Source: an uncultured cyanobacterium
Lineage (GTDB): Bacteria > Cyanobacteriota > Cyanobacteriia > Cyanobacteriales > CAWUOF01
Length of the DNA stretch: 64,000 nt
Direction: 5' to 3'
NCBI GenBank assembly: GCA_963744145.1
Contig: CAVUSO010000001.1
Location: forward strand, 5,888,001-5,952,000
Shown here: positions 53,285-60,531 of the stretch, one piece after another
How the letters are laid out: every line of letters begins with the position of its first letter
Position numbering within the stretch: position 1 is the first letter of the stretch
The notes under the pieces: model-generated
The model's database searches: none
Seen by the model: only the letters and a program-made list of their open reading frames with translations
Told to the model about the DNA's origin: nothing
Program-made: the position numbers and the translations under genes

Positions 53285-53321
53285 TTGACACTCCCCGTAT
53301 CTTTAGACCGGGGAGGATCAA
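53285..53321 (+). mobile_element. Collapsed IS200/IS605-type end scar; may also act as terminator
   Basis: TTGAC followed by CTCCCCG-TATCTTTAGAC-CGGGGAG hairpin and terminal TCAA. Confidence 0.5.
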
Positions 53322-54530
53322 TTAGAAAAATTATAATTACGACCGCGCCATTGTCTAGGTTGTTGCCAAGTTGAAAGTAATATACGCCAGAAAGCTAAAG
53401 GATCAGCTAAAGGAGACAGCCAAAATAACCAAGCACCACTAGCTTGAGATCGATCATAAGCACCAGCGATCGCGAAATTCAAAGCAAAACGAACAATTAC
53501 CAAAAATAAATTCAATCCCCATAAACAGGAAGCAAAAAAACTCGTTCCCGGAAAACCCAACCAAAAACCGAGTAAAATCGGTATTGGTAAACCTTGAAGA
53601 GCGAACAAAAACCCCAGATCACCCCATAATTGGGCTAAATTAGAAGCATCTTTCAGATCAAGCGATCGACCCCATTCCTGCCAAGTTTGCATTGCCCCTT
53701 CATACATTCTGACCTTTAATACCTTGGTTCCATCTAGAAAACCGACCTTAAATCCTAACTTGGCTGCGGCTCTTGCTAGGGTTACATCATCACAAAAAGA
53801 ACTTTTTGCCAAACTATACCCATTTAATTGTTGCAAAACTTGGCGACGAGTAAGAAAACATTGACCATTAGCCATGACTCGTTCTGGTGTTGGGGCTGTA
53901 CTTCCAGTTGGACCAAATCGGTACACCAAAGTCATCAATAATGCTGGTTGTAGCCACATTTCCCCCGGATATTTCAAAATAAATTGGGGAGAAAGTGATA
54001 CCAGATCATAGCCTTCCGACTTAGCTGTAGTAACTAAACTAGCTACTAATCCCGGATCAGGTATAGTATCAGCATCAATACCTAATATCCATTCACTCTG
54101 ATCAGCAGAGTGTAAAAAACCTGTATGTAAAGCCCAAGGAACGTCCTACCCAATCACTTGGTAAGGGGTCATCAGTAATTAAGTGGATACGTGGGTCTTT
54201 AGCACCAGTTGTCTTGACTAATTCCTGTGTTCCATCTTGAGAATTACTATCGACAACTATAATTTCACGTACTTCATAACTTTGACGACTCAAACCAGTT
54301 AAACAAGGTTCAATTCGTTCAGCTTCATTCAAAGTTGGTACAATCACACTCACACTACCCAAGATTTCTACTGTCGGAGATTGAGGTTCTAAAGGAGGAC
54401 GACGACTTGGACCTTCTTTCAGTCTAGATAGCAGAATTGCTGTAGCTGGGACTTGAAGTAGTAGCATTCCTAGACAGACTAAATCTGCTAATAAATTAGA
54501 GTCAAGAGGATAGGGAATCTGTATGGTCAC
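53318..54530 (-). CDS. cruG: Carotenoid 2'-O-glycosyltransferase, frameshifted at about 54140
   Basis: QVPAT.ILLSRL..G..R.PP, VPTLNEA, WVGR/PWAL, ERVMANGQ, SFCDDVTLAR, EWGRSLDLKDA; one extra base splits the ORF. Confidence 0.85.
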
Positions 54531-54710
54531 AATTAGATGTCAAAATTAACGAGCATTTTCATCTTATCAGTTAAAATGAGCGCAAAAAATACTTGATCAT
54601 CTGAGCTGATTTTTATTGATAAATCAATCTAGTTAGCTGTTAAAATAAGTACCAATAACACAAACGTAGCTTTAGATGATTTAAAAAAGATATCCCCAAA
54701 AATGATGGTA

Positions 54711-55697
54711 ACTGAATGGATTTTAAGATTTAGTTGATCTGTTGGTTGCATAGATGGTAAGGGCAAAGCATTTCGGTCATATTATGCTGCGTTTGTGCCA
54801 TGATTTATGCGCCGAAATGCTTTGCCCCTACAAGGAACTGAACTGGATTGGTATTTAATTAGCGATCGCTTGCCGATCAATCGGGTGTAGGGGCGAAGCA
54901 TTCGGGCGACAATTGAACAATCAAACCAGTAATATTAGATCCGAATGCTTCGCCCTTCTTCTGTGCCGAGTTCCCCAAAAATTCTTAACTGAATGGATTT
55001 TAAGGTCTAGTTGATCTGTTGGTTGCAGAGATGGTAAGGGCAAAGCATTTCGGTCATATTATGCTGCGTTTGTGCCATGATTTATGCGCCGAAATGCTTT
55101 GCCCCTACAAGGAACTGAACTGGATTGGTATTTAATTAGTGATCGCTTGCCGATCAATCGGGTGTAGGGGCGAAGCATTCGGGCGACAATTGAACAATCA
55201 AACCAGTAATATTAGATCCGAATGCTTCGCCCTTCTTCTGTGCCGAGTTCCCCAAAAATTCTTAACTGAATGGATTTTAAGGTCTAGTTGATCTGTTGGT
55301 TGCAGAGATGGTAAGGGCAAAGCATTTCGGTCATATTATGCTGCGTTTGTGCCATGATTTATGCGCCGAAATGCTTTGCCCCTACAAGGAACTGAACTGG
55401 ATTGGTATTTAATTAGCGATCGCTTGCCGATCAATCGGGTGTAGGGGCGAAGCATTCGGGCGATAATTTACCGCTTAAACCAGCAATATTAGATCCGAAT
55501 GCTTCGCCCTTCTTCTGTGCCGAGCTCCCCAAAAATTCTTAACTGAATGTATTGTAATATCTAGTTGATCTGTTGGTTGCATAGATGGTGAGGGCAAAGC
55601 ATTTCGGTAATATTATCCTTCGCTTCAGCAATTATTTATTCGCCGAAATGCTTTGCCCCTACGAGGAACTGAACTGGATTGGTATTTAATCAGCGAT
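54711..55697. repeat. Tandem array of a 277-bp unit (about 3.5 copies), two long-loop REP-like hairpins per unit
   Basis: ACTGAATG anchors at 54711, 54988, 55265, 55542. Confidence 0.95.
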
Positions 55698-55745
55698 AAG
55701 CCTACGGCTCGCTGCCACGATAAGCCTACGGCTCGCTTCCGCGAT
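55698..55745. repeat. Two tandem 24-nt units inserted in a HIP1 site (SDR5-like)
   Basis: GCGAT-[AAGCCTACGGCTCGCTGCCACGAT][AAGCCTACGGCTCGCTTCCGCGAT]-CGC. Confidence 0.75.
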
Positions 55746-55941
55746 CGCGCCAGCACATTTTTGTCCCACCACCCTGGCAAAACTTAGATTGAGGGGGGTT
55801 TTCCTAGGGACAATTAGGGTTAAGACATTTAATAAGGTTACTCATAATTTTAAAGACCTGATGTGGTAAGACCAATTAGGTACTTCTATCATATAATCAT
55901 CATATTCAAGGATAGTAAAAGCCGATCGCGTTTCCATACCA

Positions 55942-57192
55942 ATGACTTATTATATTTCTCCACGTTTTCTGGACAAAGTTGCTGTTCATATCACCAAAAA
56001 TTTTCTTGACCTTCCCAATGTGCGCGTACCCTTAATTTTAGGAGTTCATGGACGGAAAGGAGAAGGTAAATCTTTTCAATGTGAACTAATCTTCAAAAGC
56101 ATGGGGATTGAAGTGATCCATATGTCAGCAGGAGAATTAGAAAGTCCAGACGCGGGTGATCCAGCGCGACTAATTCGTCTTCGTTATCGGGAAGCAGCAG
56201 AATTAATTCGGGTACGTGGAACCATGGTCGTACTAATGATTAATGATTTAGATGCTGGAGCTGGACGTTTTGATAGTGGTACTCAATATACTGTTAATAC
56301 TCAGTTGGTAAATGGCACATTAATGAATATTGCCGATCATCCCACTGATGTGCAACTTCCTGGTAGTTATGACTCTACCCCGCTCCATCGTGTTCCTATT
56401 ATTGTCACTGGTAATGATCTTTCTACTCTTTATGCACCATTAATTCGTGATGGTCGGATGGATAAATTTTATTGGGAACCCGATCGCGATGATAAAATTG
56501 GCATTGTGGGCGGAATTTTTGCAACTGATGGACTAACTAGAAATACAATTGAGCAGTTAGTTGATACTTTTGCTAATCAAGCCATTGATTTTTTTGGAGC
56601 TTTGCGATCGCGTCTTTATGATGAACAAGTACGTGAATTTATCCACGAAGTTGGGATTGACAAAATATCCTTGCGTGTGGTAAATAGCACTGAGGCACCG
56701 CCAGAGTTTAAAAAACCAGATTTCCATCTATCTCATTTAGTAGAAGTAGGAAATTTTATGGTTCAAGAACAAAATCGAGTTCAAGATATGCGACTGGTGG
56801 CAGAATATAATACATTACGAAAATTTGAGCATCCCAATCCAGTAAATGCTGCTAGTAATACCCCAACTCGCGATCGCAGCGAATCGATTAGTATCAATCC
56901 TATTCCCCCTAAACCAGAATTAAATTCAGATGTGCTTCAACAAGTACAACAATTGTTGAATGGAGGTTATCGGGTTGGAATAGAATATGTAGACAAGCGA
57001 CGTTTTTCGATGAATTCTTGGAACTGTTATGCAGTGATTACCGCAAAAGAGCAATCTGAAGCGATCGCTACCCTGAAACTCTGTTTGAATGAACATAGTG
57101 ATAAATATGTCCGTTTAGTCGGGATTGAGCCTAGTAATAAAAAACGAGTCATGGAAAAGATAATTCACCGTCCAGATTTAAGCTCAAATTAG
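55942..57192 (+). CDS. rca: Rubisco activase with C-terminal RbcS-like domain
   Basis: PLILG.HG.KG.GKSFQ, LMINDLDAG, QLVNGTLMN, LYAPLIRDGRM; GY..GIEYVDKRRF..NSW SSUL domain. Confidence 0.92.
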   Translation: MTYYISPRFLDKVAVHITKNFLDLPNVRVPLILGVHGRKGEGKSFQCELIFKSMGIEVIHMSAGELESPDAGDPARLIRLRYREAAELIRVRGTMVVLMINDLDAGAGRFDSGTQYTVNTQLVNGTLMNIADHPTDVQLPGSYDSTPLHRVPIIVTGNDLSTLYAPLIRDGRMDKFYWEPDRDDKIGIVGGIFATDGLTRNTIEQLVDTFANQAIDFFGALRSRLYDEQVREFIHEVGIDKISLRVVNSTEAPPEFKKPDFHLSHLVEVGNFMVQEQNRVQDMRLVAEYNTLRKFEHPNPVNAASNTPTRDRSESISINPIPPKPELNSDVLQQVQQLLNGGYRVGIEYVDKRRFSMNSWNCYAVITAKEQSEAIATLKLCLNEHSDKYVRLVGIEPSNKKRVMEKIIHRPDLSSN

Positions 57193-58047: not shown

Positions 58048-58206
58048 CAATCCGATTCAGTTAAGTGTAGGGGTGAAGTATGTTTAGCGACAATCGAGCG
58101 CTCAAACCAGCAATATTAGATCCGAATGCTTCACCCTTCGACTACGCTCAGGGTAAACCCTTCTTCAGCCCAGATCCACAAAAACATCCTTAACTGAACC
58201 TTATTG
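58048..58206. mobile_element. MITE with CAATAC(G)GTTCAGTTAA-type ends carrying a long-loop REP
   Basis: CAATCCGATTCAGTTAAG / CTTAACTGAACCTTATTG; flanks ATTTATAATC and AATTATAATC (9 of 10 identical). Confidence 0.8.
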
Positions 58207-58329
58207 AATTATAATCTGCGATTGTTTAGGTAAGTTTTTTTTGGGTAATAAATTGTCCAGGAAATGTGGTTATGTATTGGTCATTGGGAAGAAAAATATT
58301 GAACCAAGTATTTTGTGATAGGAGTAGTC

Positions 58330-60084: not shown

Positions 60085-60531
60085 TACCAATTTAATGTGA
60101 AGTTGTATAAAATTGATCCCCCTAAATCCCCCTTAAAAAGGGGGACTTGAAATTCATGCTCCCCCTTTTTAAGGCAATACGGTTCAGTTAACTGTAGGGG
60201 CGAAGCATTCGGGCGATAAGTGATCACTTAAATCCGTTAATTTTAGATCCGAATGCTTCGCCCGGTTCTTCGCCGAGATATCCAAAAAAAAATTCTTAAC
60301 TGAACCGTATTGCTGGTTAAGGGACTTGAAATTCATGCTCCCCCTTTTTAAGGCAATACGGTTTGTTTAAGGGTATTTTGGGAGATATCGGCGGAAGTTG
60401 GGCGAAGCATTCGGGTATAATATTACTCGTTAGAGCGTTCAATTGTCGCCCGAATGCTTCGCCCCTACACTTAACCGAACCGTATTGCTGGTTAAGGGAC
60501 TAATTCTATGCACCCTCATCAAAAATTGGTA
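60085..60531. mobile_element. 447-bp composite MITE (TACCAATT ends) with two nested CAATACGG-type MITEs
   Basis: TAA at 60082-84 and 60532-34; inner elements 60175-60312 and 60354-60487 in opposite orientation; CCCCTAAATCCCCCTTAAAAAGGGGGACT hairpin. Confidence 0.85.

Follow-up and report, generated by a model that had tools for sequence, protein, structure and literature searches.

We found that a tandem array of a 277-bp unit, located between the divergently transcribed genes cruG and rca on the chromosome of an uncultured cyanobacterium, is probably a cluster of hairpins of the repetitive extragenic palindrome (REP) or REPIN (REP doublet forming a hairpin) type, arranged in the manner of a bacterial interspersed mosaic element (BIME), and that it probably represents selfish or neutral repeat DNA and not a gene. 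The window, that is, the whole 64,000-nt stretch of DNA that was analysed, spans positions 5888001-5952000 of contig C1 in this genome (G000; 7.70 Mb, 39% G+C, four contigs), in which the chromosome is one 7.63-Mb contig. Coordinates below are positions in the window unless a contig is named. A first-pass annotation of the array, made from its letters, had described an exact 277-bp period of about 3.5 units, paired A and B hairpins in opposite orientation with 35-nt loops, differences between the A and B stems that were compensated on both arms, right-end-like motifs of a MITE (miniature inverted-repeat transposable element) with no left end, and the absence of any open reading frame (ORF) of 60 amino acids (aa) or more. 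Each of these features was recovered. Specifically, Tandem Repeats Finder gave a period of 277 with 3.6 copies and no indels, an inverted-repeat search returned four A and three B hairpins, and the longest ORFs overlapping the array encode 51 and 50 aa.

The units of the array start at 54693, 54970, 55247 and 55524, and its left edge runs about 5 nt beyond 54693, as a remnant of a B-element tail (Table 1). CTAC directly follows each A hairpin and GTAG directly precedes each B hairpin, so that the GTAG ends of A and B face each other; the facing arms show 23 nt of complementarity (87%) across a 53-nt gap. The stems of A and B differ by an A/G change and a 1-nt insertion, each of which is mirrored on the opposite arm. 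The 63-nt head-to-head linker occurs again at 55105-55167 and 55382-55444, and the 82-nt tail-to-tail linker at 55233-55314 and 55510-55591. The right-end motif is present in six copies, all in one orientation (54834-54850, 54985-55001, 55111-55127, 55262-55278, 55388-55404 and 55665-55681), each with 4-5 mismatches to a 17-nt inverted-repeat consensus; a search of 54600-55800 that allowed up to 5 mismatches detected no oppositely oriented copy of the 17-nt inverted repeat. When a single unit was folded as single-stranded DNA, its free energy was -49.5 kcal/mol, compared to -30 +/- 3.5 for shuffled sequences (z = -5.5), and it folded as two separate hairpins. A single long hairpin formed by the A-B doublet in the style of a REPIN was therefore ruled out, because A and B fold separately.

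Table 1. Positions of the array, its parts, the neighbouring genes and the resident insertion sequence. Coordinates are those of the window except where a contig is given.
Feature	Position	Strand	Description
Tandem array	54693..55697	.	277-bp unit x 3.6; Tandem Repeats Finder: 95% matches, 0% indels
Hairpin A1	54761..54827	-	GGGCAAAGCATTTCGG, 35-nt loop, CCGAAATGCTTTGCCC; 16-bp perfect stem; GTAG tag on - strand (CTAC 54828-54831)
Head-to-head linker (CTAC ... GTAG)	54828..54890	.	63 nt; inverted repeat of IS4 type belonging to the A element (54834-54850), and a HIP1 site
Hairpin B1	54891..54955	+	GGGCGAAGCATTCGG, 35-nt loop, CCGAATGCTTCGCCC; 15-bp perfect stem; GTAG 54887-54890
Tail-to-tail linker	54956..55037	.	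82 nt; B tail, degenerate right-end repeat of IS4 type (54985-55001), reversed A tail
Hairpin A2	55038..55104	-	Same sequence as A1
Hairpin B2	55168..55232	+	Same sequence as B1
Hairpin A3	55315..55381	-	Same sequence as A1
Hairpin B3	55445..55509	+	B stem unchanged; loop is another family variant, 7 differences
Hairpin A4	55592..55658	-	A stem unchanged; loop is an older variant
24-nt unit x 2.2	55694..55745	.	Right edge of array; same pair at paralogous locus C1:2925935
Right flank	55698..55894	.	Dispersed repeat of about 155-197 nt upstream of rca
cruG	53318..54530	-	NCBIfam NF045692 matches two ORFs, 54102-54530 and 53318-53977; transcribed away from array
rca-type gene	55942..57192	+	Rubisco activase AAA+ domain and RuBisCO small-chain-like domain; transcribed away from array
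IS4-family insertion sequence	G000:C1:1537461-1538932 (L026 101-1572) and six more copies		1472 bp; perfect 10-bp target duplications

The hairpins of the array belong to a large family that is dispersed through the genome. A hairpin pattern whose two arms were free to vary independently matched 268 times per strand in G000, while the reversed control matched 0 times; together with the fold z of -5.5, this indicates that the hairpins are not due to chance. Anchoring the search on the 7-nt core of each arm gave 396 pairs, with the cores 41-43 nt apart in 340 and 65-67 nt apart in 41, and a strict search retained 381 of the 396 with stems of at least 12 bp. GTAG stands on exactly one side of 373 of these 381 copies, on neither side of 8, and on both sides of none. 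The main stem types are GGGCAAAGCATTTCGG, GGGCGAAGCATTCGG, GGGTGAAGCATTCGG, the ...CATTCCGG forms and ...CATTCCCCA, and in each of them the other arm carries the matching change. A family profile, built from 61 single copies, matched the genome 749 times and covered both arms in 631 matches; stem positions 4 and 5 form C-G/T-A and G-C/A-T pairs in 621 and 618 of these 631 copies, leaving about 10 that are discordant at each position. Over four positions that vary freely, the arms agree in 323 of 327 copies from the same genome, compared to a mean of 98.6 and a maximum of 121 after shuffling, and in 124 of 135 copies from other genomes, at 119 or more loci (shuffle mean 37.9, maximum 55). Seven stem types occur in G000 and at least nine in other genomes. 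Loops measure 35-37 nt in nearly all copies, including 122 of 135 in other genomes among the matches listed. In other words, both stems recur across the genome, their arms covary and their loop length is conserved, as the first-pass annotation had anticipated.

Typical family hairpins are 65-67 nt long with loops of 33-37 nt. About 36 copies have loops of 57-60 nt, the additional length being a 24-nt small dispersed repeat, CCCTTCGACTACGCTCAGGGTAAA (for example, at C1:251666-251754 and C1:327478-327568). G000 contains 75 exact copies of it, a number that rises to 232 when up to 4 mismatches are allowed (control, 0). Besides these loops, it is found next to other family hairpins. The small dispersed repeats (SDR) of Nostoc punctiforme, which Elhai and colleagues are said to have described in 2008, offer a possible parallel for a 24-nt unit inserted in some 36 hairpin loops; the SDR-like unit is not part of the array between cruG and rca. 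The 24-nt pair at the right edge of that array was also considered as a dispersed small repeat and was rejected, having only 4 copies at up to 4 mismatches.

The family is strongly extragenic: only 6 of 373 hairpin midpoints fall in long open frames (stop-to-stop, at least 150 codons), which cover 79.6% of the chromosome. No strand bias of GTAG orientation was seen along the chromosome. Across G000 and 40 relatives, the hairpin pattern is present in 10 of the 41 genomes, with 336 matches in G000, 107 in G010, 89 in G036, 25 in G038, 16 in G007, and 1-4 in each of five others. When one genome per species was scanned, 119 or more loci proved to carry the GTAG-hairpin; the genera among the matches listed include Microcoleus, Microcystis, Tychonema, Planktothrix, Oscillatoria, Anabaena, Sphaerospermopsis, Hormoscilla, Symploca and others.

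The most likely cognate enzyme of the family is a REP-associated tyrosine transposase (RAYT), a transposase of the Y1 HUH class, predicted from an ORF at G000:C1:4373022-4373594 (RAYT-1; 191 aa, with the histidines of the HUH motif, a conserved tyrosine, and PNHLHG and WQRNYYE...YIQENP motifs). An A hairpin with GTAG starts 42 bp upstream of its ATG and opens an array in which A and ...CATTCCCCA hairpins alternate. RAYT-1 matches NCBIfam REP_Tyr_transpos with 59.4 bits (E 3.4e-16), and an alignment of 10 homologues shows no variation at residues H81, H83 and Y163. The profile of this alignment had a single PDB match, 4ER8 chain A 'TnpArep' (E 1.4e-5), in which Y163 is aligned to chain residue 115, which we take to be the catalytic tyrosine; a phmmer search of PDB with the RAYT-1 sequence by itself returned no match. 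A search of the genome with Pfam Y1_Tnp yielded 18 matches, and none of the 14 hit regions that were checked lies beside a family hairpin, the nearest being about 3 kb away. This search missed RAYT-1 because its score, 20.1 bits, is below the cut-off.

The same adjacency is seen in three relatives. Full-length matches to RAYT-1 at 55% identity or more were found among relatives only in G036, G007 and G019 (55-59%), all of which bear the hairpin, and each of these orthologues has a hairpin of the same family within about 20-100 bp, on both sides in G019 and on one side in G036 and G007. The proposal that GTAG-headed hairpins are REP-like and linked to a RAYT, and that a RAYT gene flanked by the same hairpins exists, thus agrees with what is found in four genomes, and RAYT-1 would be expected to act on the A and B hairpins. 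In the G007 orthologue (L016, G007:C1, ORF 1495-2091) a family hairpin at 1743-1807 lies in frame in the coding sequence itself, within the variable stretch that links the HUH motif to the tyrosine motif, and the ORF stays open over 199 aa.

The GTAG hairpins that flank RAYTs of 42-52% identity are of other kinds, some having 36-39-nt loops (L021, L022). One such enzyme, RAYT-2, is encoded in G000 itself (G000:C1:6661747-6662280; 46% identical to RAYT-1), and both of its flanks carry tandem GTAG-GGGCGGGTTC-34 nt-GAACCCGCCC hairpins of a different long-loop family, making RAYT-2 and these hairpins a second REP/RAYT pair of the genome. Each RAYT thus has its own hairpin, and long loops are a trait of this cyanobacterial group. 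A weak RAYT/Y1-like stretch at G000:C1:6349176-6349433, which lies within a 1237-codon open frame, may represent either a fusion or a match arising by chance.

The 277-bp unit is likewise not confined to one locus. The genome contains 172 hairpin clusters, of which 103 are single hairpins and 69 hold 2-14 hairpins, mostly in alternating orientation and at fixed spacings, and family hairpins are present in 30 of the 152 tandem repeats with a period of at least 90 and at least 2 copies. The core of the 63-nt linker occurs 39 times at about 13 loci, which are not all independent, as three arrays share a longer right flank. In the scan of one genome per species, a 28-nt linker core had 0 matches outside G000. 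The alternation of A and B, the conserved linkers of 63 and about 82 nt, and the tandem copies, which are found in this array and elsewhere in the genome, make it a BIME-like doublet array, as had been suggested, and its unit is a chimera of A-type and B-type elements. Only right-end copies are seen on the + strand because the A element keeps its repeat next to GTAG, while B lost its own.

Identity among the units points to recent amplification, which the first-pass annotation had also proposed. The 277-bp units of the array share 97-100% identity with one another and 82-92% with units at other loci; the doublets A1-B1, A2-B2 and A3-B3 are 96.6-99.5% identical to one another and at most 93.5% identical to any other locus. 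Units 2 and 3 differ by one base up to the left arm of B3, unit 2 carries a private T, and unit 1 differs at its left end. The loops of A1-A3 are identical, as are those of B1 and B2, whereas the loops of B3 (at 7 positions) and A4 differ from them, with all stems the same. The switch from the recently amplified units to the older terminal unit occurs in or just before the left arm of B3. From there on the sequence has a different ancestry: 55440-55697 (B3-A4) is 96.5% identical to C1:2925395-2925652, the window's other units are absent from its best 12 matches, and the flank at 55698-55894 shares 91% identity with the sequence following the array at C1:2925395-2925652. This match and the shared right flank indicate that the divergence of the B3 and A4 loops was inherited. 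The first-pass annotation was thus correct that the loops of the last B and the last A differ over fixed stems; as a change in place the divergence does not stand, and diversification of the loops within the array was ruled out by the mosaic ancestry. The array itself is a mosaic, combining an older terminal unit common to another locus with a recent local amplification.

The same evidence makes it highly improbable that the true locus holds one unit, or some other number, and that the array was expanded by the assembler. Repeat arrays are error-prone, and in one run, short contigs from a soil metagenome matched the left flank exactly while none bridged the array. However, the units are not identical, as is seen in the left end of unit 1, the private T of unit 2, and the B3-A4 variant that is joined to a unique flank; the chromosome is a single 7.63-Mb contig; and similar arrays with their own variants are present at many loci.

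Many family members carry a further layer of structure. When single copies are oriented by GTAG, they have a conserved order of CAATACGGTTCAGTTAA, nT, GTAG, hairpin, a tail of about 28 nt and TTAACTGAACCGTATTG, with the same 10 nt on both outer sides. At up to 4 mismatches, both inverted repeats were called at 45 of 374 oriented hairpins, the left one only at 108, the right one only at 50, and neither at 171. The two-repeat copies are mostly MITEs of about 135 bp (130-139 bp in 35 of 45). A 10-nt duplication was present in 23 of them when no more than 2 mismatches were allowed, and in 13 of these it was perfect, compared to 0 of 45 in a control shifted by 12 nt. Seven elements of 1472-1473 bp share the inverted repeats of the MITEs and are bounded by perfect 10-bp duplications. 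Each contains one ORF of 461 aa, at L026:167-1552 in one of the copies, with Nterm_IS4 and DDE_Tnp_1 domains, and this transposase scores 178 bits against NCBIfam transpos_IS4_1 (NF033592; cut-off 115). Judging by sequence, the 1472-bp IS4-family element is the presumptive parent of the MITE forms. As the inverted repeats and 10-bp duplications are common to both, many members of the family are likely to be non-autonomous derivatives of this resident element whose interior is the GTAG hairpin.

Among 63 full-length MITE copies, identity to the consensus is 100% in GTAG, 94.6% in the left and 97.4% in the right arm of the stem, 88.8% in the left and 90.2% in the right inverted repeat, 84.3% in the tail and 81.7% in the loop; the tag and stem are thus kept more tightly than the parts that the DDE transposase needs, a contrast that is partly biased in that profile detection favours conserved columns. 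Matches to the junction of inverted repeat and GTAG number 0 in G007, G010, G019 and G038, and 13 in G036. Hairpins in these relatives that are without the junction show that the hairpin exists independently of the MITE, and its capture into the MITE looks secondary.

The array in the window has degenerate inverted repeats in one orientation only and no 10-nt duplication at its ends; what had been read as one-ended MITE termini are degenerate copies of the IS4-type inverted repeat. At C1:5245938-5246522, by comparison, a 585-bp A-B-A-B composite lies between paired inverted repeats and is bounded by the duplication TCTCATAAGG, which indicates that a composite can move as a block.

These observations also bear on an account in which the hairpin serves only as MITE interior, the GTAG tag is a coincidence and the RAYT plays no part, so that the IS4 transposase alone disperses the family and recombination makes the arrays. 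It would fit the complete single copies with IS4-type inverted repeats and 10-bp duplications, the 585-bp composite between paired repeats with its duplication, and the seven autonomous IS4 copies in the genome. We nevertheless regard it as unlikely, because 171 of 374 hairpins have no inverted repeat nearby, the hairpins of G007, G010, G019 and G038 are without the repeat-GTAG junction and those of G036 include only 13 matches to it, the RAYT orthologues in four genomes adjoin family hairpins that have no inverted repeats, conservation in the MITE copies is higher for GTAG and the stems than for the inverted repeats, and the hairpin family occurs in many cyanobacterial genera.

A reading that joins the two layers, which we put forward tentatively, is that of a hybrid element on which two enzymes act: a REPIN family of GTAG hairpins, serving as RAYT substrate, would have been captured between IS4 repeats. 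The DDE transposase would spread the elements, by cut-and-paste or by copying, while a RAYT-linked constraint would hold the tag and stem, as suggested by their being more conserved than the inverted repeats. The A-B chimeras, poor in repeats after losing half of them, would no longer transpose singly and would persist and multiply as tandem BIME-like arrays, occasionally moved as a block between outer inverted repeats, as at C1:5245938-5246522.

Several points weigh against reading the array as a product of a REP/RAYT system, with or without the IS4 layer, in addition to the detection bias noted above. The RAYT-1 score of 59.4 is under the curated REP_Tyr_transpos cut-off of 80, and family hairpins lie on one side only of this gene in G000. 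G038 has 25 hairpins and no RAYT match, and G010 has 107 hairpins and, as RAYT matches, only a full-length one at 44% identity and a C-terminal fragment at 58% identity located at a contig start; both assemblies are fragmented into hundreds of contigs. At 65-67 nt with 35-nt loops, the hairpins fall outside the usual REP size of 20-40 nt (PMC3733652). Finally, the window's array has no paired inverted repeats or target duplication.

The following history would account for the array. GTAG hairpins may have been captured inside MITEs of about 135 bp bearing the inverted repeats of the resident IS4 element, and these forms may have been spread by its DDE transposase, leaving 10-bp target duplications. 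A and B elements would then have been joined head to head, through the 63-nt linker, and tail to tail, through the 82-nt linker. Two of the four inverted repeats would have been lost in the chimeric unit, and as a result the remaining two point the same way. The locus would first have held an older ...B-A unit with the right flank, paralogous to C1:2925395-2926131, after which a second unit variant would have been amplified about three-fold in place, likely by unequal recombination or replication slippage between the near-identical hairpin stems.

Other family members show related arrangements. The window contains three further full-length family MITEs, at 58048-58207 (about 24 nt longer than the other two), 60175-60312 and 60354-60487. 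In the region of C1:1569219, a family MITE is inserted, with the duplication CGCCCCTACT, in a short palindromic GTAGGGGCG...CGCCCCTAC repeat; this short GTAG palindrome represents a further repeat family, with 59 pattern matches. In C-type hairpins, those of the ...CATTCCGG subfamily (for example, C1:5579339-5581021), TCCGGATT stands directly before GTAG and replaces the IS4 inverted repeat; its TCCGGA presumably resembles the heterocyst-specific DIF motif.

The location between divergent cruG and rca is confirmed by a match to the cruG model on the - strand and an rca-type AAA+ protein on the + strand. The cruG ORF at 54102-54530 corresponds to positions 2-121 of NF045692 and the ORF at 53318-53977 to positions 168-386; the middle of the gene is in another frame, which is a frameshift, a pseudogene or a sequence error. 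The right-flank repeat at 55698-55894 has copies of 89-91% identity at C1:2925935, C1:2924406 and C1:7461730, beside unrelated genes. A search of Rfam 15 at E up to 1 returned only miRNA families (E of at least 0.1), the best match having 21.8 bits against a gathering score of 117. The suggestion of a structured RNA family in the first-pass annotation is therefore without support, as no Rfam match came near the gathering score. A promoter and terminator scan found no promoter-like or terminator-like site inside the array. The rca gene was found in 4 of 12 relatives, and the DNA upstream of it in these four has no similarity to the window.

No role in the expression of cruG or rca is indicated: the array matches no Rfam family and is free of promoter and terminator signals, and relatives show no conservation of the upstream region. 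An array with a function, either as tandem small-RNA genes or as a regulatory or topological element acting on the divergent promoters of cruG and rca, is in our judgement very unlikely. Such an array might bind gyrase or nucleoid proteins, as is reported for enterobacterial BIMEs, or encode small RNAs in its repeats, as NsiR1 is said to be. Its position in a 1.4-kb spacer between two divergently transcribed genes, its compensated stems and constant loop length, and its strong fold are what such a role would lead one to expect. On the other hand, the best Rfam match is far below the gathering score and of a miRNA family, like all the others, the interior of the array is devoid of sites resembling promoters or terminators, the relatives examined show no conservation upstream of rca, and the 277-bp unit is present at about 13 unrelated loci while the hairpin family lies beside many unrelated genes. 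No host function is indicated, and there is no sign that the array at this locus is anything other than passenger DNA located in a promoter region.

The usual view of a REP/RAYT system is that of a closed pair, in which one domesticated HUH transposase is matched with hairpins of its own. In this genome such hairpins are also found inside the MITEs of an unrelated DDE transposon, whose target duplications record real transposition events. The family is therefore a natural setting for asking by which enzyme REP-type repeats are spread, what keeps their stems perfect, and how BIME-like tandem clusters arise. The analysis adds to the first-pass annotation an IS4-MITE layer that explains the one-ended termini, a chimeric unit at several loci and a mosaic history of the array. 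It is also relevant to annotation, since family hairpins occur in many cyanobacterial genera, including Microcoleus, Microcystis, Planktothrix and Anabaena. In the literature searched, a partial collection, we found no description of REP-type hairpins inside MITEs.

Among known systems, the array is most readily compared to the BIME-2-type REP clusters of Escherichia coli, which Gilson, Bachellier and Hofnung are said to have described. It resembles them in having two alternating REP types, conserved head-to-head and tail-to-tail linkers, a variable number of tandem copies and an extragenic location. It differs in its unit of 277 bp (roughly 100 bp in BIME-2), its hairpins of 65-67 nt with 35-nt loops, and the remnants of IS4 inverted repeats in its linkers. 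The likeness is one of sequence arrangement; the binding of IHF, gyrase and Pol I belongs to known BIMEs. Regular spacing and an alternating orientation of the REPs are general features of BIMEs (Nunvar et al. 2010, PMC2817692).

A MITE layer has its nearest parallel in Nezha, a cyanobacterial MITE of about 130-170 bp with the inverted repeats of ISNpu3 (Delihas 2011, PMC3184786). Both have a length near 135 bp, terminal inverted repeats common to a resident insertion sequence, direct target duplications and a stable predicted fold; unlike Nezha, with which the comparison is by description only, the elements described here have a GTAG-tagged hairpin of RAYT type as their interior, and their copies form tandem arrays. 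In Microcystis, a 152-bp border repeat with the inverted repeat GGGCGAAGCATTCGGA was left unclassified (Klemencic et al. 2021, PMC7935541), and hairpins of the present family were thereby noted in passing as unexplained "border repeats".

The REPIN, defined as two inverted REP sequences forming a hairpin (Bertels and Rainey 2011, PMC3116915), is represented in Pseudomonas fluorescens SBW25 by tandem arrays that alternate GI and GIII sequences, with near-identical arrays at two loci (PMC3116915). As in SBW25, we found inverted copies of a sequence of about 16 nt at a short separation that form a hairpin, a RAYT gene that has its own repeats beside it, several RAYT/REP pairs within one genome, arrays that mix two REP classes, and near-identical arrays at different loci. 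Unlike the system described there, many copies lie in MITEs with DDE-type inverted repeats and target duplications (PMC3116915). The A-B doublet does not form one long hairpin as SBW25 REPINs do; instead, each single hairpin, with arms of 15-16 nt and a 35-nt spacer, fits the REPIN plan.

Closest in their tag are the GTAG-tagged REPs, a superfamily that includes the cyanobacterial families GTAG-12, -15 and -16 in filamentous and unicellular hosts (Di Nocera et al. 2013, PMC3733652). In that superfamily the stem measures 6-13 bp and the loop mostly 2-15 nt and up to 27 (PMC3733652), whereas the hairpins reported here have stems of 15-16 bp and loops of 33-37 nt, a comparison made by description and not by consensus sequence. 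The two groups share an unpaired GTAG at one end of the stem-loop, complementary changes in the stem, dimers in head-to-head, tail-to-tail and head-to-tail (HH, TT, HT) arrangement, and clusters that are reiterated in tandem together with flanking DNA (PMC3733652).

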